Of a stretch of DNA of 32,163 nt, positions 2,983 through 19,723 are shown piece after piece. The stretch is from positions 1 through 32,163 of the forward strand of contig JAISDM010000016.1 in the NCBI GenBank assembly GCA_031264885.1, read 5' to 3'. Position numbers and translations under genes: made by a program. A model generated the notes under the pieces. The model was given only the letters and a program-made list of their open reading frames with translations, ran no database searches and was not told where the DNA came from. Numbering within the stretch: the stretch's first letter is position 1; each line of letters starts with the position of its first letter. The DNA is from Peptococcaceae bacterium. GTDB taxonomy: Bacteria; Bacillota; Peptococcia; DRI-13; UBA5745.

Positions 2983-3975
2983 TCAGGGCAGATTAAATTC
3001 GCTTTTGGGGAATTGGATTTCTACCGCGGCGCCTTGCCCCGCTTCCGAGGCAATGGAGACCGCCAAACCCAGCTTCGTACACAGTTTTTTGCATAAATAC
3101 AGGCCGAATCCGGTGGACCGCCCGAAGCGCCGGCCGTTTTCGCCGGTAAACCCTTTGTCGAAGACCCGCGGGATATCTTTTTCCGGGATTCCGACGCCGT
3201 CGTCCCGGATGAAAAGAGAAACGCTCTGGGGATGCGGCACACCCCGAAACTCCAGGTGGGTTCCGCCGTATTTTACGGAATTATCCATGATTTGGCGCAG
3301 AATAAAGACGACCCATTTCGCGTCGGTAAATACCGTCCAGTCCAGTTCCAGCGCGGTTATTTTGACCTTGTTGGCGATCAGATACACGGCGTTGTTTCTG
3401 AGCGCGCCGCCGACCAGATCCGATAAAGGAACCGCTTTAATGATGTAGTCTTTCTCCACGCTGCCGCTGCGGGAATAGAAAAGGACCTGTTCCGCCAAAA
3501 ACTCAATTTTGTCCAGCTCGGTCAGAATCTCCTGATTGTGGGTGTTCTCGCAGATCAACTTCGTCCCGGCGATGGGGGTTTTGATCTCGTGAACCCACAT
3601 TTCAATATATTCACGGTATTCCAGGGAAGCAAGGCGGTGTTTCCCGATCTCGCCGCTCATGGATTTGGCTGTGCGCCGCAGGGTATCGTACAGGATTTGG
3701 CCGTCGAAGAAGTCCGGCCGGTCTATCATTTCCGGCAAAAAGCGTTTTTCCTCAAGCTGATCCAGCAGGTTTTGCAGCTTGGTGTAATACTGTTTTTTTG
3801 TAAAAAACTCCGGAAGCAGGGCCGCCAGGCCGCCGAAGAAGAACAGGCCGGGAATGAAGACGACAAAGTAAGGCCGGGGCTTGACTACGTAAAGCAGCAG
3901 CATAAAGAAAACGGACAAAAAAAGATTCGTAAGGATGAATCCCAGCTTGCTCCGCGTGAAATCGCCGATTTTCAT
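2983..3975 (-). CDS. Intramembrane-sensing histidine kinase, BceS/GraS-like
   Basis: Two close N-terminal TM helices, H-box WVHEIKTPI, N-box QIMDNSVKY, DDGVGI, FDKGFTG, STGFGLY. Confidence 0.93.
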   Translation of the reverse strand: MKIGDFTRSKLGFILTNLFLSVFFMLLLYVVKPRPYFVVFIPGLFFFGGLAALLPEFFTKKQYYTKLQNLLDQLEEKRFLPEMIDRPDFFDGQILYDTLRRTAKSMSGEIGKHRLASLEYREYIEMWVHEIKTPIAGTKLICENTHNQEILTELDKIEFLAEQVLFYSRSGSVEKDYIIKAVPLSDLVGGALRNNAVYLIANKVKITALELDWTVFTDAKWVVFILRQIMDNSVKYGGTHLEFRGVPHPQSVSLFIRDDGVGIPEKDIPRVFDKGFTGENGRRFGRSTGFGLYLCKKLCTKLGLAVSIASEAGQGAAVEIQFPKSEFNLP

Positions 3976-6258: not shown

Positions 6259-7962
6259 TCAATTGTTGGCAGATCCACGCAGCATTGCATCCCAGTCGGA
6301 GGGCAGCTCGATCTTTTTACTTACTGGGTATCCTATAAATCCGTTCTGGGCGCAGACAAGGGTATGATCCCTGGCGGGGTCGCCGCTTACAGCGATCTGT
6401 AAATCATCGGGATCGGAGACCATCTGGACATACCGGTTCGGATCCGCGGACGTGCCCAGCTGTTCAGGCCAGCTCCCGTCTTCGATGCCCTTTTGGAACC
6501 GCGCGATTTCCTTCCCGCTCATATCAGCCGGCTTCAGCTTCGCGTTCTCATAGAGATACCGCTTGATTTTTTCCTTGGTATAGCCAGCCTTCGCCAACTC
6601 TTTCACCACGAGCGGCGTGAGTATGATCAAAGGTCGCGTCTTTTGGCCCCGGAAGAAGAACTGAATGAAAAGATGATTATCAGCCATACGCTTTGCGATG
6701 TTTTCCAGTGTGCCTTCGGCAGTGGGCATACCGGACTCGATCAGCTGAGTCCGCTCCGTGACGGAAGTCAGAGTGACGACATTATCCCCGGTCTTGAAGC
6801 CCCGATCAGCGCTCAATGGCTGCCAGCCGGCCTCGGCAATCGCGTCCTCGTTTTCCGCCAAAACAATTCTGAAGTTATCTCCAAAGCAGCCTTTATCCGC
6901 TTTATGAGGCAAAAATCCGCACACATTCCGTATGTACATACGCAGGAAACGGCCGATGCTGGTATTCGCCTGAAATCCGGGGCGAAGAATTCCCTGGGTA
7001 TAGTTAAACTCCAAATCCTTAATGATCTTGCCATTTATGATAATCAACGTTTCCGTTCCAGGCGTCTGCCCCAGATGCTCCTGGCCAAAATCCGGGTCGC
7101 ACAGCCCTTCGACAATGGCGATCAGTACAGGCATATATTCCGGGCGGCAGCCGCTCATCACGCCGTTTACGGCAATGTTCCAAATTGTCGCCTCACGGTT
7201 ATCCGGCTTCAAGACCCCGACGACCGAACCCGCGGGGCGCGCCGTAAACCGCAGGAATTTCTCCACCTCTTCAATCACCGGCGGAATGACAGGCAGACCG
7301 TCGCTCCACTCGCGCATATAATAAAAGTCGTTGACCTCCTTGAGATTACCGGAAAAAACGATATCTCTCATCCCCGGCTCCTTCACCGGCTTCGCGTCCG
7401 CCGGCTGCACAGTCAGAGCCTTGACAACCTGGTCGGTCATAACCTCGGCCGCGTTCTTATAAATCTCTTCATCCGTAAAGAAATTGACATGTCCCGGATG
7501 AACCGCGTAGGGCAAATTGGGATATCCTTCGCCCGCCGCATTGAAGCCGCCCGCCGTTTGGAAACCGTCACAACAAAGTGTCACGGTGGGAATCCCTAAC
7601 TTCTCAACCAAAATGCTGGTTCGGGTCACGGCGGCGATACAGCTGCCGCAGCAGCCGACGCCGCAGATTACGGCGTCTACGCCAAAGCTCTTCAGCTTCC
7701 CGGGGAGATCGGCCAATACCTCATGCTCCTTGCCCCCGTGAATTTCACCAAACTCCTTCCAGCTTATGAAACGGATCCCGGGATACCGTCTCCCCAACTC
7801 CGCTTCAAATCCCTCGCACATGACATCACCTTTGAAAACCCAATCCCATAACTCCGCTACGACCTTGCCCTCCAGCGTATCCAGGCGCTTCGCGAGTTTA
7901 GCGCCTGTTATGGTGGACTTTCCGCGGGGCCATACAACATCATACACATTGGCGTCTTTCAT
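6259..7962 (-). CDS. UGSC-family (seleno)protein homologue, Cys form, paralogue 1; putative thiol-dependent redox enzyme
   Basis: N-terminal GVDAVICGVGCCGSC...VEKLGIPTV; C-terminal domain WSDGLPVIPP, IAVNGVMSGCRPEY, ANTSIGR; RBS GAGGAGG; no in-frame TGA. Confidence 0.75.
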   Translation of the reverse strand: MKDANVYDVVWPRGKSTITGAKLAKRLDTLEGKVVAELWDWVFKGDVMCEGFEAELGRRYPGIRFISWKEFGEIHGGKEHEVLADLPGKLKSFGVDAVICGVGCCGSCIAAVTRTSILVEKLGIPTVTLCCDGFQTAGGFNAAGEGYPNLPYAVHPGHVNFFTDEEIYKNAAEVMTDQVVKALTVQPADAKPVKEPGMRDIVFSGNLKEVNDFYYMREWSDGLPVIPPVIEEVEKFLRFTARPAGSVVGVLKPDNREATIWNIAVNGVMSGCRPEYMPVLIAIVEGLCDPDFGQEHLGQTPGTETLIIINGKIIKDLEFNYTQGILRPGFQANTSIGRFLRMYIRNVCGFLPHKADKGCFGDNFRIVLAENEDAIAEAGWQPLSADRGFKTGDNVVTLTSVTERTQLIESGMPTAEGTLENIAKRMADNHLFIQFFFRGQKTRPLIILTPLVVKELAKAGYTKEKIKRYLYENAKLKPADMSGKEIARFQKGIEDGSWPEQLGTSADPNRYVQMVSDPDDLQIAVSGDPARDHTLVCAQNGFIGYPVSKKIELPSDWDAMLRGSANN

Positions 7963-8131: not shown

Positions 8132-8990
8132 ATGCGTTCTCTTGGGGATACATGTCGTAAACAACATTGAGAAGCGCCATAACTACCGGAGACGGCGATT
8201 TGCGATGGAGAATGACCCCCACCGGCATAAGATCGGTCTCAAGCGGGACGGCGGCGAGCGAATTCAACATATTCACAAAAGACGCTTTGGTGATAAAAAC
8301 ACCATTGTTATAACAAATGCCCATAATGCTTTGCAGGTCATTGCTCGGAAGGGTCTCCAGCTTCAGATGATCACAACATTTGTTCAGCTGTTCCAAAAGA
8401 TCGGTGTTTTTCCACAATACTCCCACATGCTGACCGGATAAATCTTCCAACCGGATCGTCTGCTTTTTGGCCAGCGGATGATTTGGCAGGAAAAGGCACT
8501 TGTAGGGCATGGGAAAAAGCACGGTATACCGTATATCGGGGCGGTCCAGCATTGGATGATAGGTGCATTCGGCCACATCCGCCCGATCATGGAGTATATC
8601 TTCAACAAGATTGCCGCTTGCCTGCAATTTTATTTTAACCCCAGGAAATTTACGGGAGAATTCATTGAACACGTTGTCCAGCAGCAGATGTGGATGGGAA
8701 GGCGTTATAATGCGAACAGTCTGGTTTTGGAGCGCAAGTTCCCGGCCCCTTTGGGCAGCGGCTTCCATTTCGGCGATTGATTTCCTGGCGGCGTTACAGA
8801 ACAACTCGCCGGCGGGGGTCAGGGAGATACCCTGATGCGTGCGCACGAACAAAGTGAAGCCGAGCTCCTTCTCAAGGGAGTCGATCTGCTTCTTAACGGC
8901 CGGCTTTGAAAGATACAACGCTTCCCCGGCCTGGCTGAAACTGCCGCGCTCCGCTGTTGTAATCAGAGATTTGAGCTGCTGACTGTTCAT
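8130..8990 (-). CDS. LysR-family transcriptional regulator
   Basis: MNSQQLKSL...GSFSQAGEALYLSKPAVKKQIDSLEKELGFTLFVRT HTH; start reset to ATG 8990 after AGGAG. Confidence 0.93.
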   Translation of the reverse strand: MNSQQLKSLITTAERGSFSQAGEALYLSKPAVKKQIDSLEKELGFTLFVRTHQGISLTPAGELFCNAARKSIAEMEAAAQRGRELALQNQTVRIITPSHPHLLLDNVFNEFSRKFPGVKIKLQASGNLVEDILHDRADVAECTYHPMLDRPDIRYTVLFPMPYKCLFLPNHPLAKKQTIRLEDLSGQHVGVLWKNTDLLEQLNKCCDHLKLETLPSNDLQSIMGICYNNGVFITKASFVNMLNSLAAVPLETDLMPVGVILHRKSPSPVVMALLNVVYDMYPQENA

Positions 8991-13019: not shown

Positions 13020-14024
13020 ATGGAGAAAACGGCTCAGGCCGGCGAGGCTTTCTTAGATATCAAGGATCTCGTCGTTGAGTACCACACCGACGACGCGGTC
13101 ATTCACGCCGTTAACGGTGTAAACCTGAAACTGGCAAAGGGCGAGACGCTCGGCCTCGTTGGTGAAACCGGCGCCGGGAAGACAAGCATCGCCAGAAGCA
13201 TTCTGCGTATTCTGCCAGATCCGCCGGCCAAAATCATGAAAGGCGAAATTTGGTTCAACGGCGAGAATATACTGAAGCTCCCGGAAAAAAAAGTCCGCTC
13301 AATCCGCGGCGATAAAATCAGTATGATATTCCAGGACCCCATGACAGCCCTGAACCCGATTGAAACAGTAGGCAGCCAGATTTCCGAGGCAATCCGGCTG
13401 CATAACAGCATCTCAAGAGCCGACGCCAACAAACAGGCCGTACAAATGCTTGAGACGGTCGGCATCCCCGGCAAGCGTTTCACCAACTATCCTCTTGAGT
13501 TTTCAGGCGGGATGAAGCAGCGGGTGGTTATTGCCATGGCGCTGGCCTGCAAACCGGAACTGCTGCTGGCTGACGAGCCGACCACCGCGCTGGATGTCAC
13601 CATCCAAGCACAGGTACTCGAAATGATGCGTGACCTGCAAAAAGACTTCGGCGCCTCCGTTATCCTGATCACACACGACCTCGGCATCGTGGCCGAAATG
13701 TGCGAGAAGGTCGCCATCATCTACGCCGGAGAGGTCGTTGAATACGGTACGGCGGAGGATATCTTTGACCACCGCGCGCATCCCTATACCGAAGGACTTT
13801 TCGGTTCTATCCCAACGATCCATACCAAAACAAAACGTTTAAATCCCATTCGGGGCATGATGCCCGACCCCGCCAATCTGCCGTCCTGCTGCCGGTTTGC
13901 CGGTCGCTGTCCGTACACCACAGACGAGTGTACAAGCAGCTATCCCGAGATGGTCGAATGCAAGTCCCAGCCACACACAGTACGTTGTGTACGCGCCAGG
14001 GTAAAGGAAGGGGGGAGCCAATGA
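13020..14024 (+). CDS. Dpp/Opp-type ABC transporter ATP-binding subunit (DppD-like)
   Basis: Walker A GETGAGKT, FSGGMKQR, DEPTTALD, HPYT, Cys-rich oligopeptide-ABC tail; ATG 13020 after AAGGAGG. Confidence 0.95.
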   Translation: MEKTAQAGEAFLDIKDLVVEYHTDDAVIHAVNGVNLKLAKGETLGLVGETGAGKTSIARSILRILPDPPAKIMKGEIWFNGENILKLPEKKVRSIRGDKISMIFQDPMTALNPIETVGSQISEAIRLHNSISRADANKQAVQMLETVGIPGKRFTNYPLEFSGGMKQRVVIAMALACKPELLLADEPTTALDVTIQAQVLEMMRDLQKDFGASVILITHDLGIVAEMCEKVAIIYAGEVVEYGTAEDIFDHRAHPYTEGLFGSIPTIHTKTKRLNPIRGMMPDPANLPSCCRFAGRCPYTTDECTSSYPEMVECKSQPHTVRCVRARVKEGGSQ

Positions 14025-14968
14025 GCGATATTCTCGAAGTACAAGAACTGAAAAAATACTTCCGGGTGGACGGCGGCAGCCAGCTTCACGCGGTAGACGG
14101 TGTCTCCTTCAAAATTGAAAAAGGACAAACCCTTGGCGTCGTCGGGGAGTCCGGCTGCGGTAAATCGACATTGGGCCGCGTCATTCTGCATCTGATCGAA
14201 CCCTCCGGCGGGCAGATTTTCTTTGAAGGCAAGGATATCTCCAATCCTAACCGCAGCATGATCAATTACGTCCGGGAGAACATGCAGATCATTTTCCAAG
14301 ACCCGTTTTCCTCGCTTAACCCGCGTATGAGCGTCAGCGAGACGATCATGGAGCCCATGATTATAAAGGGCGGGATCTCACGGTCCGACATGTACGAGAA
14401 AACATTGAAACTGATGGATACCGTCGGCCTCGCCCAGCGTTTTACGAATTCCTATCCCCATGAACTCGACGGCGGGCGCCGCCAGAGAATCGGCATTGCG
14501 CGCTCGCTCGCGCTTGACCCCAAGTTCATCGTCTGCGACGAGCCCGTCTCCGCGCTGGACGTCTCTATACAGGCACAGATATTGAACCTGCTGCTGGATC
14601 TGCAGGAGGAGCGGAACCTGAGCTATATCTTCATCACTCACGATCTGTCCGTTGTAAAATACATCTCCAACAACATCCTCGTCATGTACCTTGGGCAGAT
14701 GGTCGAACTGGCGCCATCCGACGAGCTGTTTGAGAACCCGGCGCACCCCTACACAGAGGCGCTGCTTTCCGCCATCCCTGTCGCGGATATCCATGTAAAA
14801 CACGAACGCCTCCAAATGAAGGGAGAACTGACGAGTCCGATCGATCCGAAGCCCGGCTGCCGCTTCATGGCCCGCTGCCCATATGCCGCGGAAAAATGCG
14901 CCGAGCCCCAGACACTGCAAAATATCTCCCCGGATCACCAGGTTTCCTGTTGGATGAAGCAATCCTAA
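14021..14968 (+). CDS. Dpp/Opp-type ABC transporter ATP-binding subunit (DppF-like)
   Basis: [37 protein letters not shown]; ATGA overlap with the previous gene. Confidence 0.95.
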
Positions 14969-14969
14969 C

Positions 14970-14996
14970 GCGTAACCGCGTAAAAGACAAATAGAA
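14970..14996. repeat. 27-bp direct repeat, left copy (GCGTAACCGCGTAAAAGACAAATAGAA)
   Basis: Identical to 17522-17548. Confidence 0.95.
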
Positions 14997-15051
14997 CGCT
15001 TCGTGTCTGTGGGTTTGCTGTAGACGGGATTTCTGCGTTCTTTCGCTTCAA

Positions 15052-15252
15052 TCAGCGGGCTTCTTTCATCAGCTCCTTAATCTGTTCTTCCAATCGAAGT
15101 CTTTCTTCTCTTTCTCTAGCCAATTGTCTTTCTGCCTCCAGCGCCTTCTTTTCCGCCGCCGACGCTTTTTGTTTTTCTTCTAATGCTTTTTGTTTTTCTT
15201 CTTCTATAATCTCTTCCCAGATATCATTCAAATAACGCGTTTCTCCAATCAT
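15052..15252 (-). CDS. Putative intragenic in-frame small protein (RpnS-like antitoxin), 66 aa
   Basis: Perfect internal Shine-Dalgarno AAGGAGG (15267-15261), 8 nt before an in-frame ATG at 15252. Confidence 0.6.
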   Translation of the reverse strand: MIGETRYLNDIWEEIIEEEKQKALEEKQKASAAEKKALEAERQLAREREERLRLEEQIKELMKEAR

Positions 15253-15903
15253 TTCCAATTCCTCCTTCGTATAATTTACTTCGTTTAACATGCCGTAAAT
15301 CTTTTTAATCCAAGAAGGATCGCTGTCCTTCATTTCGCCGCCCAGAAACAATCGCTGCCACGGTTCCAAATCATCACTCACCGTCTTGGTATACTCGAAA
15401 AAACAAGAAACCGTCGATAGCCCAGGGAACACCAAGTCATGTTTTTTATCGTAAAACTCAAACATATGCACAGCGTCCTCATCTGACTTGATCAATCGAT
15501 CGCCGATGATGTTCAAACTCAAAACCCGTTTCAGACCTTTGTATTTCTTTGCTCCAAAGTTTTTTACAAATCGGTCCGAAGTGTAAAAAAAGGATCGGGT
15601 CGCGAAAATATTCCTGGTTTGCATTTGCAGTTCCACAATGAAATCCCCCGCGTCAAACGCCGCGGATATGTCTTTGATGGTTTCCTTGATTTTTCGAACT
15701 TCACCGTCGCGCTCAAAATAAGAATGAAAGCTGTATGGATTTGAAATCACAATATCTTTGGCGTCTATGCCGAAGAAATCATGAATCGTGCCCCACAGAA
15801 CTTCTTCGCTCTCGCCCGGTGTCGTCGTCGCTTTGCGAAACACAAGATCATTCGTGATCGACAAGCCTTTTTTCCTTTTTTCAGGTTCGGTTTCTTTCGC
15901 CAT
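15052..15903 (-). CDS. Rpn-family recombination-promoting nuclease / PD-(D/E)XK nuclease family 'transposase'
   Basis: ITNDLVFRK, KDISA, IVELQMQ (D...ExQ motif), RSFFY, SLNII, then a charged coiled-coil C-tail; start ATG 15903 after GGGAG. Confidence 0.85.
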   Translation of the reverse strand: MAKETEPEKRKKGLSITNDLVFRKATTTPGESEEVLWGTIHDFFGIDAKDIVISNPYSFHSYFERDGEVRKIKETIKDISAAFDAGDFIVELQMQTRNIFATRSFFYTSDRFVKNFGAKKYKGLKRVLSLNIIGDRLIKSDEDAVHMFEFYDKKHDLVFPGLSTVSCFFEYTKTVSDDLEPWQRLFLGGEMKDSDPSWIKKIYGMLNEVNYTKEELEMIGETRYLNDIWEEIIEEEKQKALEEKQKASAAEKKALEAERQLAREREERLRLEEQIKELMKEAR

Positions 15904-16067
15904 AATCAATACTCCCATCGTTTTCTCAATTGGTTTGACATCATGAATCCCCCATAAAGAAATGATAGCATAGAATTCTCCAAAAATAAATATCCGAAAT
16001 TGACTTTGAGGCTTTGAGGGGGACGGATGCCGCCAAACGCAATGAATAATAAAAGGAGGCATACAAT

Positions 16068-17483
16068 TTGAAAAAGAAACTTTTACGAAGAAACTTTCTC
16101 AAATACGGCGCAGCAATAGGAACGGTGGCTTTAGTTGCAGCGGTTTTAGCCGGTTGTGGTAGCGCGGTCACTCCATCCTCCGGCGCAGAATCATCTGCAG
16201 TCTCATCCTCCGGTACATCGGAATCATTGCCCTCGGTTCAGGCGACGGAACCCGGAGCAATAAAACAATCATATTATCGTGTCAGCGGCGCGAATATAAT
16301 GCTCTACGAGCCGATTGAACCCGGAGAAAACGCAAAAATCCTGCTCGCCTCCATGCACGGCGGCCTGGGCCGGACTCTGGAGCAAAATTTCCTCAAAACC
16401 GTGGCTACGCTGGGATTTCGTACTATGTATTGTGTCCCAGACCACGCATCGTTTGTTGATCAGTTCAAAGATTTTGCGAACTGCATGACGTTTGCTCGGG
16501 AATATGATGGCGTCACAAAAATTATCCTGATGGGGCAGAGCCGCGGCGCCGCCGTAATGAGTGCCTACCAGAAAATTGCCGAGAATGGTGCAGATGTGTT
16601 TCAAGGGCCTGAGCGACGCCTACCCATTCCCGATATAGTGTGTTCCCCGGCTGACGGTCTCATGTTGCTTGACGCAAATTTTGGTTTTATGGTAATGCAT
16701 GTCATGTCCATGAACCCCGCTCTCATTGAGGAAGGTAACGCGATGAAGGTAGACCCTGAGCTTGACGCATTGAACCCCGAAAATGGTTTTGGCGAAGAAG
16801 AGTGCCATTACACCGAGGAGTTCCGCCGCAAATTCCTAACAGCCCAAAGGTCACGCTATTACGAGCTGATGGATCTGGCAGAGGAGCGTTGGGGGCTGAT
16901 CCAAAACGGAGAGGGTAATTTCTCGGATAACGAGCCGTTTATTGTGCCTGATTGCATTGGTACTAACAATTCGCCGAAGCTGTTTGCCGGTGATATAAGC
17001 TATTTCTCCCGAACCAAGGGGGCTTACGATCTCATCCATCCAGATGGCTCCATCACCAATGAAGTTATTCGGTGTCTGCGCCCAAACGAGAACAACCCCG
17101 CTTTCGCTGGCACCAAAGAGGCTGCCTTTGAGACAACCGTCAAGGACTTCTTTTGGATGGAGGTTAACATTACCGAAGACTATGACTACGGCGAGGATTA
17201 TCTGACCGGCGTCGATTTTGAAAGCAGCTTCACCTGTTCCAGTGGCAATGTAAAGATGATATCCTGTCCGCTGCTACTGATGGGCCATACGGCCGGATAC
17301 GAGTTCATTACTGCGGAGTGGTCCTACGAAAACGCAAACAGTGCTGATAAAACCATCGCGTTTACCGAAGGCGCCACGCACGGATGGTCTTCCATCGACA
17401 AGGACAAATATGGTGATACACTTCTAACCGAGGCCAAATATGTGGCCGACTGGATGACGGCGGAAGGGCGCTTTGTTGACTAA
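16068..17483 (+). CDS. Putative Tat-exported lipoprotein, alpha/beta-hydrolase fold
   Basis: LRRNFLK twin-arginine motif, h-region, lipobox LAGC, Ser-rich linker, HGG, nucleophile elbow GQSRG, C-terminal GATHG; TTG start after AAGGAGG. Confidence 0.8.
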   Translation: MKKKLLRRNFLKYGAAIGTVALVAAVLAGCGSAVTPSSGAESSAVSSSGTSESLPSVQATEPGAIKQSYYRVSGANIMLYEPIEPGENAKILLASMHGGLGRTLEQNFLKTVATLGFRTMYCVPDHASFVDQFKDFANCMTFAREYDGVTKIILMGQSRGAAVMSAYQKIAENGADVFQGPERRLPIPDIVCSPADGLMLLDANFGFMVMHVMSMNPALIEEGNAMKVDPELDALNPENGFGEEECHYTEEFRRKFLTAQRSRYYELMDLAEERWGLIQNGEGNFSDNEPFIVPDCIGTNNSPKLFAGDISYFSRTKGAYDLIHPDGSITNEVIRCLRPNENNPAFAGTKEAAFETTVKDFFWMEVNITEDYDYGEDYLTGVDFESSFTCSSGNVKMISCPLLLMGHTAGYEFITAEWSYENANSADKTIAFTEGATHGWSSIDKDKYGDTLLTEAKYVADWMTAEGRFVD

Positions 17484-17504
17484 ACTTCGTTCTTTGCTAA
17501 TCCA

Positions 17505-17999
17505 TTAAAGAATTACAAGATGCGTAACCGCGTAAAAGACAAATAGAATAACCGTCCCGGCCAGGCAGATGCGGCAGCGGTCGATATACTGCTGCCGTGT
17601 CTCCGGCCTTTTTTTGAAGTGCTTGCGCCATCCGGAATTCTCGTCCATTACCGCGGCGCCATCTGAATCCGGCTCTGAACCTCGTTTTCGCAGTGTGCTT
17701 AACCGGAAAAGGCTGAGGATCACGGTGACAGCGCCGAATCCCAGCCAACAGTAAAACGCAGAAAAACTGAGGTTTTGCCGGTACTTATCGGCGCCATAAA
17801 CGCCGTATTTCAGCCAAGCCCCTGTCTCCCCGAAAGCCATGGCTATGGTCCCGCCTATCGTAATCCAAAAAAAGATTCGGCTGAGTTCAAGCAGGATAGA
17901 CCCCTCGGCGCTTCGTGTAATCCTCTCCCGCTTTTTTTCAAGCGACCTGCGGAACACATCGTCGTCGCCCTTGCCAAAGCGTTGTAGTAGATTAAACAT
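17505..17999 (-). CDS. Hypothetical membrane protein (about 3 TM segments)
   Basis: Three hydrophobic stretches; starts 2 nt after the stop of 18002-19723; start codon uncertain. Confidence 0.6.
   Translation of the reverse strand: MFNLLQRFGKGDDDVFRRSLEKKRERITRSAEGSILLELSRIFFWITIGGTIAMAFGETGAWLKYGVYGADKYRQNLSFSAFYCWLGFGAVTVILSLFRLSTLRKRGSEPDSDGAAVMDENSGWRKHFKKRPETRQQYIDRCRICLAGTVILFVFYAVTHLVIL
17522..17548. repeat. 27-bp direct repeat, right copy, inside the 3' end of the membrane-protein gene
   Basis: Identical to 14970-14996. Confidence 0.95.
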
Positions 18000-18001
18000 A
18001 T

Positions 18002-19723
18002 TTACATCTGAGCTTCTTTCAGCATTTCATTCCAATGATCCGGGAGCTTGACCGCCTGGCTGGTGAGCTTGCCCATCGAGTAGTTCGACCGGAAGAACTG
18101 GCTGCGGTTACGGGTCGGATCCCCGACGACAATGACGACAATGTTGGCTTCTTTCCAGAACAGCGGCACCATACGCTTGGGGTCGTCGGATTCATACCAT
18201 TCCGGATCAAGATTCCCCATCCCGACCTCTTCCTTTAAGCTGTAAGGCTGCCAATGATTAAACCGGGATACGTTCGTTTCGAAGTACTCGGCGGTAACCT
18301 TCGCGTGGGCGAGGATGTACTTTGTAATGGATTCTTTATCATACCCGCTCCCGGCAAGCAGCTTCGCGACGGCCGGGCTTAAGAACAGGACGTTGTTATC
18401 CTGATATCTGCGCATTGTCTGATAGGGTTCAGTCATCCTGGCTGCCCAGTCGGTCAGATAATCCAGATGCTGTTCCGCGGTGGAACCGTTCGTCTGCATC
18501 GGGTCGCTGCATACGCGGCCGGAAACGATCGTGACGACGTTTTCGCCTTTGTCGAAGCCCTGCGTCTCAGCGACTGTCTTGAAGCCGATTTCTTCACAGA
18601 CTTGGTCATTCTCCGGGATAACCGGACGGAACATCTGTCCGTAGGTCGACATATCCGTCGAACCGATCTGGAACCCGGCGATGTTGCGCAGTATCAGGCG
18701 ATAGAAGCGGCCTACCGTTACGTTCGGCATACAATCCGGACGCTGATGCCCGATTTTGTAGTTGAATTTAAGTTGATCACGAATGGGCCCGTTCAGCATG
18801 ATCATCGCTTCCCACCCCGGAGTGGCGCCGGAGTCTTTGACGCTAAACTCAGGGGTCGCCATGATCTCGGCGATGGCGAGAAGCAGCGGGAAATATTCCG
18901 GATGACAGCCGGCCATAACACCGTTAACCGCGACTTTCCAAACAGTGCAGGAGGCCATGGACGGCTCCATAATGCCGATCACTTCCTCAGGATCGCGGTC
19001 CGTGAATTTCAGGAACTTCTCAATTTTTTCAACAGTCGGAGGGACAATCGGAAGACCGTCCGACCATTTCATTTCGTAGAAATAATCCTGGATCTCCTCG
19101 TTGCTTCCCTCAAAAATAATATCGCGGGAAGCCGGCCCTCTCTTTCTTTCCCTAGCCGTACTTTTGACAGGCGTTGTAAGGGCGGCGGCGATCTTCGGAA
19201 CGACAGCGTCACGAATGTTTTTGCGGACGGTATCCGCCGAATCCAGCGCGATCGGGTTCGGATATTCCACGAAACGGGCGTCCGGGTAGCCGGCGCTCTT
19301 CGCGTTCTGTTTTGCCATGGGTGGGAAGCCCTTGCAGAGTATGCCGACAGCCGGAATGCCCTGCCGCTCGACCAACACAACGCCGCGCGCCACAGCGGGA
19401 GAGCAGGTACCGCAGCAGCCGTTGCCGACAATTACGGCGTCAATGCCGTTTTTCTTAAGCTGTTCCGGAAGAGCCGCCATCATCTCGGCTTCATAAGACG
19501 GATCATGGAAATTGCCGAAGGTCTTGTAGCCGACAAATTTAATGTCCGGATACATGGCTTTTAATTCTTCTTCAATCATCGGGAAGGTTTCATCGCCGCG
19601 GAACGCCCAGTTCCAAAGCTCGCCGATGGTTTTTCCGTTGAGATCGGGGATGGACGGAGAAACTGTTTTGTCTTTTGAGACAGATACCGCGGCTGGATAA
19701 ACAACCTGAAGAACGCCACTCAT
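18002..19723 (-). CDS. UGSC-family (seleno)protein homologue, Cys form, paralogue 2
   Basis: GIDAVIVGNGCCGTC...VERQGIPAV; WSDGLPIVPPT, VAVNGVMAGCHPEY; colinear with 6259-7962 over its full length. Confidence 0.75.
   Translation of the reverse strand: MSGVLQVVYPAAVSVSKDKTVSPSIPDLNGKTIGELWNWAFRGDETFPMIEEELKAMYPDIKFVGYKTFGNFHDPSYEAEMMAALPEQLKKNGIDAVIVGNGCCGTCSPAVARGVVLVERQGIPAVGILCKGFPPMAKQNAKSAGYPDARFVEYPNPIALDSADTVRKNIRDAVVPKIAAALTTPVKSTARERKRGPASRDIIFEGSNEEIQDYFYEMKWSDGLPIVPPTVEKIEKFLKFTDRDPEEVIGIMEPSMASCTVWKVAVNGVMAGCHPEYFPLLLAIAEIMATPEFSVKDSGATPGWEAMIMLNGPIRDQLKFNYKIGHQRPDCMPNVTVGRFYRLILRNIAGFQIGSTDMSTYGQMFRPVIPENDQVCEEIGFKTVAETQGFDKGENVVTIVSGRVCSDPMQTNGSTAEQHLDYLTDWAARMTEPYQTMRRYQDNNVLFLSPAVAKLLAGSGYDKESITKYILAHAKVTAEYFETNVSRFNHWQPYSLKEEVGMGNLDPEWYESDDPKRMVPLFWKEANIVVIVVGDPTRNRSQFFRSNYSMGKLTSQAVKLPDHWNEMLKEAQM

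Follow-up and report, generated by a model that had tools for sequence, protein, structure and literature searches.

By what route did a nuclease gene and a hydrolase gene come to be enclosed by two identical 27-bp direct repeats where a membrane-protein gene of a Peptococcaceae bacterium ends, and did the nuclease itself bring them there? The locus lies on a contig of 32,163 nucleotides (JAISDM010000016.1 of assembly GCA_031264885.1, forward strand; C272 below), which was analysed over its whole length and is referred to as the window. It is one of the 308 contigs of a 3.26-Mb metagenome bin from a termite gut. The original prediction, made from the letters of the window, had described an insertion with cargo and had raised the possibility of an Rpn-associated mobile unit. 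We find good support for the view that the DNA between the repeats was acquired and came to lie in the 3′ end of the membrane-protein open reading frame (ORF). The nuclease, on the other hand, is best read as cargo or as having arrived later, and not as what drove the insertion.

The repeat, GCGTAACCGCGTAAAAGACAAATAGAA, occurs twice on the + strand of the window without a single mismatch, at the two positions predicted (Table 1), and none of 100 dinucleotide-preserving shuffles of the window gave any match to it. These are its only two copies in the 308 contigs. In an approximate scan of the genome, no third copy was detected with up to six mismatches, and the three sites with seven mismatches were unrelated. 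The identity ends abruptly on both sides, the flanks being identical at fractions of only 0.15 and 0.12. When the genome was scanned for exact direct repeats of at least 18 bp at a spacing of 0.2-20 kb, 168 genome-unique pairs were obtained. Fifteen of these have unrelated flanks and are called isolated here, and the 27-bp pair is the second longest among them.

Both copies were recovered in independently built contigs. Three public termite-gut runs of one study (X1-X3) were compared as contigs, which drop rare variants; X1 is probably the source sample, so its reads are not independent of the assembly. In X1, one contig bridges the left copy (14120-15103, 3 differences) and another the right copy (15967-17756, 0 differences), extending 107-1,555 bases to either side of each. 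In X2, the right copy is bridged by a contig of a strain diverged by about 4% (17369-17659, 11 differences). The junctions therefore hold in X1, and the right one in X2 too, and the repeat structure is not an assembly artefact. The insertion is shared by two strain variants or more and so is not of very recent date.

The reading frames across the two junctions show what the insert did to its target. In the right copy, the minus strand specifies LFVFYAVT of the membrane ORF; HLVIL and a stop codon follow, and this present tail (17521-17505) comes from the insert. The left copy, read in the same register, leads to a TAG at 14967-14965, which shares two bases with the TAA (14966-14968) of the neighbouring dppF-like gene. 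Direct reading thus bears out the predicted frames at both copies. The prediction had added that the insert restores the C-terminus of the target, which is inexact, as the tail changes from R-stop to HLVIL-stop.

The target gene is an orphan. Among 58 scored candidates in 5.8 billion proteins, its only homologue was itself, and a metagenome scan returned three weak loci (32% identity over residues 1-73), which were judged unrelated. Its third-position G+C content is 0.59, as compared to 0.66-0.71 in the neighbouring genes. The ORF starts 2 nt past the stop codon of an upstream gene of the UGSC family. The 570-residue UGSC protein has four paralogues in the genome, two in the window (6259-7962 and 18002-19723) and one each on contigs C194 (6785-8470) and C286 (2615-4288). 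Those in the window adjoin peptide ABC transporters and carboxylesterases, while the C194 copy has one in-frame TGA and, judging from this codon, may encode a selenoprotein.

The ORF listing confirmed that exactly two genes lie between the copies, a nuclease gene on the minus strand and a hydrolase gene on the plus strand. In G+C content the insert (0.468) falls below both the rest of the contig (0.549) and the genome (0.559); the repeat unit that contains the nuclease gene is lowest, and the hydrolase gene has 0.506. The hydrolase was found in none of 200 related genomes, apart from two matches covering the signal peptide only, and the nuclease in none of 100 at E≤1e-20, the relatives searched including no species of the same genus. 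The cassette had no DNA match in plasmid and phage collections, and its proteins had no match in PADLOC. Because both genes are absent from the relatives searched and the G+C content lies below that of the surroundings, the insertion is well supported.

An empty site was sought and not found. A DNA search of 60 relatives matched the dppF part of the locus only, apart from three short matches to the nuclease tail (37-54 bp, E 1e-4 to 6e-4), and 40 relatives offered paralogues of the UGSC neighbour with no clear orthologues. Likewise, none of the joints listed in the X1-X3 contigs, which leave parts of X2 and X3 uncovered, skips the 2,552 bp as an empty site or a circle would. One joint in X2 (18001->15030, with 19 letters between) matches the junction of a DUF6398 gene and a nuclease copy on contig C283, and so does not represent the locus. 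The failure to find an empty site follows from the target being an orphan gene. As a whole, the predicted insertion of about 2.55 kb with an att-like duplication gains from the foreign G+C content and the absence of its genes from relatives, but an allele without it was not found in related genomes or runs.

As predicted, the insert contains no integrase or DDE transposase: at E≤10, Pfam gave no integrase, transposase or transfer domain, only PDDEXK_2 above the cut-off, and sub-threshold matches to LMBR1, Tho2, TAT_signal and Hydrolase_4. No match to Phage_integrase was present anywhere on the contig. Among 25 listed of the 26 inverted-repeat pairs found in 14600-17900, none lies at the ends of the cassette. 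We detected no Rfam, tRNA-like or riboswitch target in 14000-18600, and the signal of a promoter and terminator scan was no higher than in shuffles. Integration at a dif/Xer site, as in integrative mobile elements exploiting Xer (IMEX), was rejected by eye, since the 27-mer lacks inverted arms.

The reading we favour, to which we give about an even chance, is site-specific integration by a recombinase that acted in trans or has been lost, leaving an integrase-less, att-flanked islet akin to a cis-mobilizable element (CIME). We infer a recombinase origin of the repeats and the following order of events. Recombination across 27 bp of identity would have brought the DNA at 14997-17521 into the 3′ end of the membrane ORF, with one copy remaining on each side as attL and attR. 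The agent would most likely have been a tyrosine-type site-specific recombinase, supplied in trans or by a larger ancestral element that has since decayed. The insert would thereby have given the target gene a new five-residue tail, and the original end, R-stop, would have been displaced to its position next to dppF. In the accessible text of Guedon et al. (2017, PMC5704250), att identities range over 8-60 bp, protein genes are targeted at their 3′ ends such that one repeat holds the end of the gene, and CIMEs that have lost the integrase still have attL and attR and may lie in tandem with an integrase-bearing element. The repeat is in agreement with such an origin, being perfect, isolated, genome-unique and far beyond chance. 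The genome encodes seven tyrosine recombinases above the Pfam cut-off, none of them on the contig of the cassette, which could act on it in trans.

Two further cassettes of the same design occur in the genome. The three longest isolated repeat pairs (30, 27 and 23 bp, on C109, C272 and C150, respectively) all duplicate the 3′ end of a gene. The C109 cassette, 1.6 kb with a G+C content of 0.406, contains three ORFs without family match and no recognisable nuclease. A gene for a 191-residue protein of the Phage_integrase family (1028-1603, E 4e-23) lies 246 bp outside its left copy and reads towards it, and beyond this gene there is a fragment of an IS3-type helix-turn-helix transposase. The whole looks as if an integrase-bearing element and a cassette without an integrase had accreted in tandem. 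The C150 cassette is 744 bp long, has a G+C content of 0.462, and contains one gene of the Uma2 family, which has the PD-(D/E)XK fold, and one element resembling repetitive extragenic palindromic (REP) sequences. Of 11 related loci, seven have recJ behind secF at a distance of about 0.5-0.95 kb, and all seven gaps hold a small membrane-protein ORF, LapA-like by eye and without family match. Thus, C150 is not a simple pair of empty and filled sites either. Genome-wide, flanking repeats of at least 22 bp were found at four of 87 low-G+C segments and at three of 435 random controls; two of the four are true cassettes.

Other repeat pairs from these scans were set aside. The 22-bp pair on C227 is an intragenic leucine-rich-repeat motif, and the 32-bp pair on C265 is a dispersed REP-like repeat. 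The 22-bp pair on C252 belongs to a diverged element about 140 nt long. Two copies of this element (380-520 and 8600-8740, with the 22-bp core GGGCGACAACGTGTGCAACGCG) lie on either side of an 8-kb region with a PDDEXK_2 gene at its start, and they could be structured RNA or the ends of another island. Two dispersed REP-like families, around GGGCGGCAGnATGCCGCCCCTACGG and GTCATTCCGGGCTTGTCCCGGAATCC, are present in great number (e.g. C150:12418-12500, C288, C214 and C205) and make up most of the 727 direct-repeat pairs of at least 18 bp within 20 kb. The idea that the repeats of the cassettes begin exactly at stop codons was also dropped: it is true for C150, the similarity at C109 goes on past the stop at 6 of 7 bases, and it is false at the 27-bp pair.

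Several observations weigh against site-specific integration. No empty site was found, nor a circular junction among the joints listed in X1-X3, nor a third att copy in the genome or in 2.9 million viral contigs, none of which contains the 27-mer. The insert is filled by two intact genes, with no integrase remnant or gene debris, so decay from a larger element would need tidy deletions. The identity ends one codon before the original stop, and the protein tail therefore changes; classical elements usually preserve it, as do the cassettes on C109 and C150. The reconstructed empty site would consist of two convergent genes that overlap at their stop codons, without spacer or terminator, which is unusual. 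Finally, the recombinase gene on C109 lies outside the repeat-bounded cassette, and the parallel thus needs the tandem-accretion reading.

An insertion through short homology, without a dedicated recombinase, is an unlikely route. The incoming DNA, circular or linear, would by chance have carried the 27-bp gene end or have acquired it before, and either RecA-dependent recombination near the minimal homology, of the Campbell type, or template switching during replication would have duplicated it. A single crossover would leave just what is seen, with the identity once on either side and no recombinase within. The minimal segment for efficient RecA-dependent recombination in E. coli, from the work of Shen and Huang in 1986, is reportedly about 23-27 bp, which counts for this route. 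In the accessible part of their paper, Kingston et al. (2017, PMC5350276) propose that nicks made by Rpn proteins feed primer-template switching and the microhomology-mediated assembly of islands. Such a route leaves unexplained how the incoming DNA obtained 27 bp of the end of an orphan gene. Moreover, three cassettes in one genome, each duplicating the 3′ end of a gene and one adjoining a tyrosine recombinase, point to a directed process rather than to rare accidents.

It is rather improbable that there was no insertion at all, with an ancestral gene order and a left 27-bp copy left over from a local duplication or rearrangement of the end of the membrane gene. The missing empty-site allele would fit, and the membrane ORF itself looks accessory in its orphan status and third-position G+C content, so that the whole stretch may be a variable region. 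However, the repeat identity stops sharply between unrelated flanks, the nuclease unit is compositionally foreign, both inner genes are absent from all relatives searched, and the same pattern recurs at two other loci.

The nuclease requires a closer look, given that it is the only DNA-acting gene inside the repeats. It matches the Pfam family PDDEXK_2 (PF12784) at E 1.2e-9 and 38.7 bits (cut-off 27.4), does not match NCBIfam models or PF04754 (Transposase_31) at E≤10, and does not reach TIGR01784. An exhaustive HMMER search returned 271 cluster representatives at E≤1e-3, the nearest full-length ones being 30-39% identical. When 11 relatives (P0083, P0085-P0090 and P0092-P0095; the fragment P0084 and P0091 were left out) were scanned with TIGR01784, the Rpn-family model of NCBI, five passed, four fell below the cut-off and two had no match. 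Residues D19, D78, E91, Q93 and R103 are invariant in an alignment of 17 nuclease sequences. They would be equivalent to D11, D63, E82, Q84 and R94 of RpnA, itself outside the alignment, which are listed in the accessible text of Kingston et al. (2017, PMC5350276). The Rpn label of the original prediction therefore holds loosely: by sequence, the protein is a divergent Rpn-like relative and not a member of the Rpn family at model level. A sequence search of the PDB yielded nothing. The only close protein, at 73% identity, lies on a 1.6-kb contig, and no close homologue with genomic context was present in the genome or viral contigs searched.

Within the genome, the nuclease forms a repeat unit of its own. 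Its bounds come from blastn comparison with C283 and C117 (83-95% identity), where the boundaries align. The unit ends short of both 27-mers, by 31 bp on the left side and by about 1.5 kb on the right. A second copy lies at the end of C117 (20525-20913), together with a 60-bp fragment (18890-18949) across a cobQ-like gene. C283 carries an internally deleted copy (847-1151) and a further fragment at the contig start (1-158). One remnant has 94 codons with three internal deletions, and the fragments flank the cobQ-like gene and a DUF6398 gene. Neither the hydrolase nor the 27-mer accompanies the copies on C117 and C283. The variable tail of Rpn proteins goes together with an internally translated antitoxin, RpnS. 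In the present gene an in-frame Met stands before the heptad repeats of the tail, and the number of heptad-like EEKQKAL repeats differs between C272 and C117, C117 having extra ones. This difference fits the hypervariable C-terminal repeats of Rpn proteins, which were shown to be toxin-antitoxin and anti-phage genes in the portion of Zhong et al. (2023) available; ours is probably a gene of the toxin or defence type.

The A/T-rich leader of about 50 bp before the nuclease gene (window 15955-16013; C283:1097-1151) recurs alone at C283:4549-4594, before an unrelated esterase-like ORF, either as a possible portable promoter or as what may be left of a further nuclease unit. The genome contains at least four further PDDEXK_2 genes (C11, two on C252, C287) and 16 matches to the Uma2 family, as compared to 0-7 in 30 relatives. 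This termite-gut genome is unusually rich in nuclease genes of the PD-(D/E)XK type.

If the nuclease drove the unit, it would have made staggered breaks about 27 nt apart, and joining of the cassette and fill-in would have produced a 27-bp target-site duplication. We regard this as very unlikely, although the catalytic motif is intact, the nuclease is multi-copy and rearranged in the genome, the 23-bp cassette on C150 also carries a PD-(D/E)XK gene, and the repeat lengths (23, 27 and 30 bp) vary as staggered cuts might make them. The idea of an Rpn-associated mobile unit, which came from the original prediction, does not agree with a nuclease unit that meets neither repeat, nor with copies elsewhere that lack both the hydrolase and the 27-mer. 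Repeat-flanked cassettes without an Rpn-like gene exist in the same genome, and the one on C109 lies beside a tyrosine recombinase. Among 39 PDDEXK_2 or Uma2 loci from this genome and 30 relatives, with repeats sought up to 1.5 kb on each side, a single one had a flanking repeat of at least 18 bp, and it is a tandem gene pair. Conversely, no gene related to the nuclease, or to the membrane ORF, lies within 5 kb at any of 29 loci of hydrolase homologues. At these loci (about 11 kb each) the longest flanking exact repeat was 15 bp, with none of 14 bp or more in 21 of the 29; the sole exception was a 20-mer between paralogous flanking genes. The available text of Zhong et al. (2023) describes rpn genes as having no inverted repeats, no target duplications and variable ends, calls it "highly unlikely" that they are transposases, and knows of no autonomous transposase with a PD-(D/E)XK fold. 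The accessible text of Kingston et al. (2017, PMC5350276), meanwhile, shows RecA-independent recombination when Rpn is overexpressed, and with their nicking proposal this leaves a small opening for an indirect role of the nuclease.

Such a role could be extended to a new class of nuclease-assisted cassette, in which the nuclease staggers the nicks and host repair does the joining, with this locus as the first Rpn-linked insertion footprint with cargo. The thought arises because three cassettes sit at the 3′ ends of membrane-protein genes with 23-30-bp duplications and no recombinase of their own, and two of the three carry PD-(D/E)XK genes; we give it hardly any credence. Last, a chimeric metagenomic join at a shared 27-mer, to which the fragmented bin and the repetitive nuclease region, inside which independent contigs break, might have lent itself, has next to no probability, as X1 contigs cross each copy, a diverged X2 strain crosses the right one, and a join of this kind would have retained the shared word once instead of twice.

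The other gene of the cassette encodes a predicted lipoprotein exported by the twin-arginine translocation (Tat) pathway. Its earlier description as a Tat-lipoprotein hydrolase holds, as the twin-arginine motif, the lipobox and the α/β-hydrolase fold were all found. No Pfam family was reached above threshold, and a sequence search of the PDB gave nothing. An AlphaFold2 model (predicted local distance difference test score 84.6) matched feruloyl and cinnamoyl esterases, monoacylglycerol lipases and YcjY at a Foldseek probability of 1.00. S158 in GQSRG, D427 and H438 are invariant in 22 sequences and would form a Ser-Asp-His triad. The family comprises 80 homologues in the protein collection and 29 genome loci, the latter spanning Actinomycetota, Clostridia, Chloroflexota, Proteobacteria, Bacteroidota, Spirochaetes and Acidobacteriota at 31-64% identity. 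The best matches, at 63-64% identity, come from a Nocardioides bin and an Oscillospiraceae bin, and this distribution of sequences suggests frequent horizontal transfer.

Table 1. Positions of the repeats, genes and related features in the window (C272) and on two other contigs of the genome
Feature	Position	Strand	Remarks
Stretch between the repeats	14997..17521	.	2,525 bp; with one repeat copy a 2,552-bp unit; single-copy in the genome as a whole
Left 27-bp repeat, att-like	14970..14996	.	Relic of the last codons of the membrane ORF; 1 bp past the dppF-like stop codon
Right 27-bp repeat	17522..17548	.	Within the live membrane ORF; encodes LFVFYAVT of the last hydrophobic segment
Target gene, orphan ORF of 164 aa	17505..17999	-	Three hydrophobic segments; G+C by codon position 0.53/0.43/0.59, coding-like
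Relic stop codon TAG	14965..14967	-	Would end the membrane ORF as ...YAVTR without the cassette
dppF-like ABC ATPase gene	14021..14968	+	Borders the insertion on the left; closes a dppBCDF-type operon; start inferred (longest ORF starts at 13928)
Divergent PD-(D/E)XK nuclease gene, Pfam PDDEXK_2, Rpn-like	15052..15903	-	283 aa; D...ExQ motif conserved; charged heptad-repeat C-terminal tail
Nuclease repeat unit	15028..16013 (approx.)	-	Promoter-like leader, ORF and 24 bp of 3′ flank; G+C 0.416
Tat-signal lipoprotein gene, α/β-hydrolase fold	16068..17483	+	471 aa; RRNFLK motif, lipobox LAGC, elbow GQS158RG; no Pfam model
C109, 30-bp perfect pair	1850-1879 and 3521-3550		Right copy is the last nine codons and stop of an EamA-family transporter gene
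C150, 23-bp perfect pair	11783 and 12550		Right copy is the last codons and stop of secF; left copy 15 bp upstream of recJ

Compared with described systems, the structure belongs to a known kind. CIMEs and decayed integrative elements of Firmicutes, such as the ICESt1/ICESt3-related islands at the 3′ end of fda in Streptococcus thermophilus, are likewise small, integrase-less islands flanked by direct repeats. In these islands one repeat holds the 3′ end of a protein-coding target, the gene stays open, and the cargo consists of adaptive or defence genes. The repeats of ICESt1 are 27 bp long. Two hallmarks of CIMEs, att-like repeats at a gene end and the lack of integration and transfer genes inside, are both found here. 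However, no integrase-bearing partner using the 27-mer turned up in the genome (up to six mismatches) or the viral contigs. The islet is also very small (2.5 kb, two intact genes, no pseudogene debris), and its target is an orphan gene whose last residues are changed rather than preserved.

Published rpn (YhgA-like) genes resemble the nuclease in other respects. As far as the accessible texts of Kingston et al. (2017) and Zhong et al. (2023) extend, they share a PD-(D/E)XK core with D...ExQ, a variable repeat-containing C-terminal tail and the absence of inverted repeats, as well as a patchy distribution with several copies or fragments per genome. The present protein differs in passing PF12784 only, not PF04754 or TIGR01784, and in its distance from the nearest cluster representatives. 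Furthermore, rpn loci in those texts lack target duplications, whereas the repeats here bound a unit larger than the nuclease gene.

A third comparison concerns insertion sequences with long target duplications. IS1630, of the IS30 family, duplicates 19-26 bp and IS1634 from 17 to several hundred bp; both are multi-copy, with a DDE transposase and terminal inverted repeats. Like them, the cassette is an inserted segment between direct repeats of about 20-30 bp, but it has no transposase domain and no inverted repeats and is single-copy. Nor do the same ends recur at several sites, as those of an insertion sequence would; only the nuclease part does (C117, C283).

If site-specific integration is the right reading, the locus would be a tidy but ordinary case of accessory or defence genes persisting as integrase-less, att-flanked islets. 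It also cautions that a nuclease annotated as a putative transposase beside direct repeats should not be assumed to be the mobilising enzyme. The hydrolase represents a widespread family without a Pfam model, patchily distributed over at least six phyla, and it may serve as a secreted esterase in a lignocellulose-degrading habitat. What raises the locus slightly above the routine is the combination of three very small cassettes of the same design, the Uma2 expansion and an uncharacterised, widely transferred hydrolase family. The three minimal cassettes (0.7-2.5 kb) in one termite-gut genome are a convenient natural collection in which to ask which recombinase acts in trans on cassettes without an integrase.

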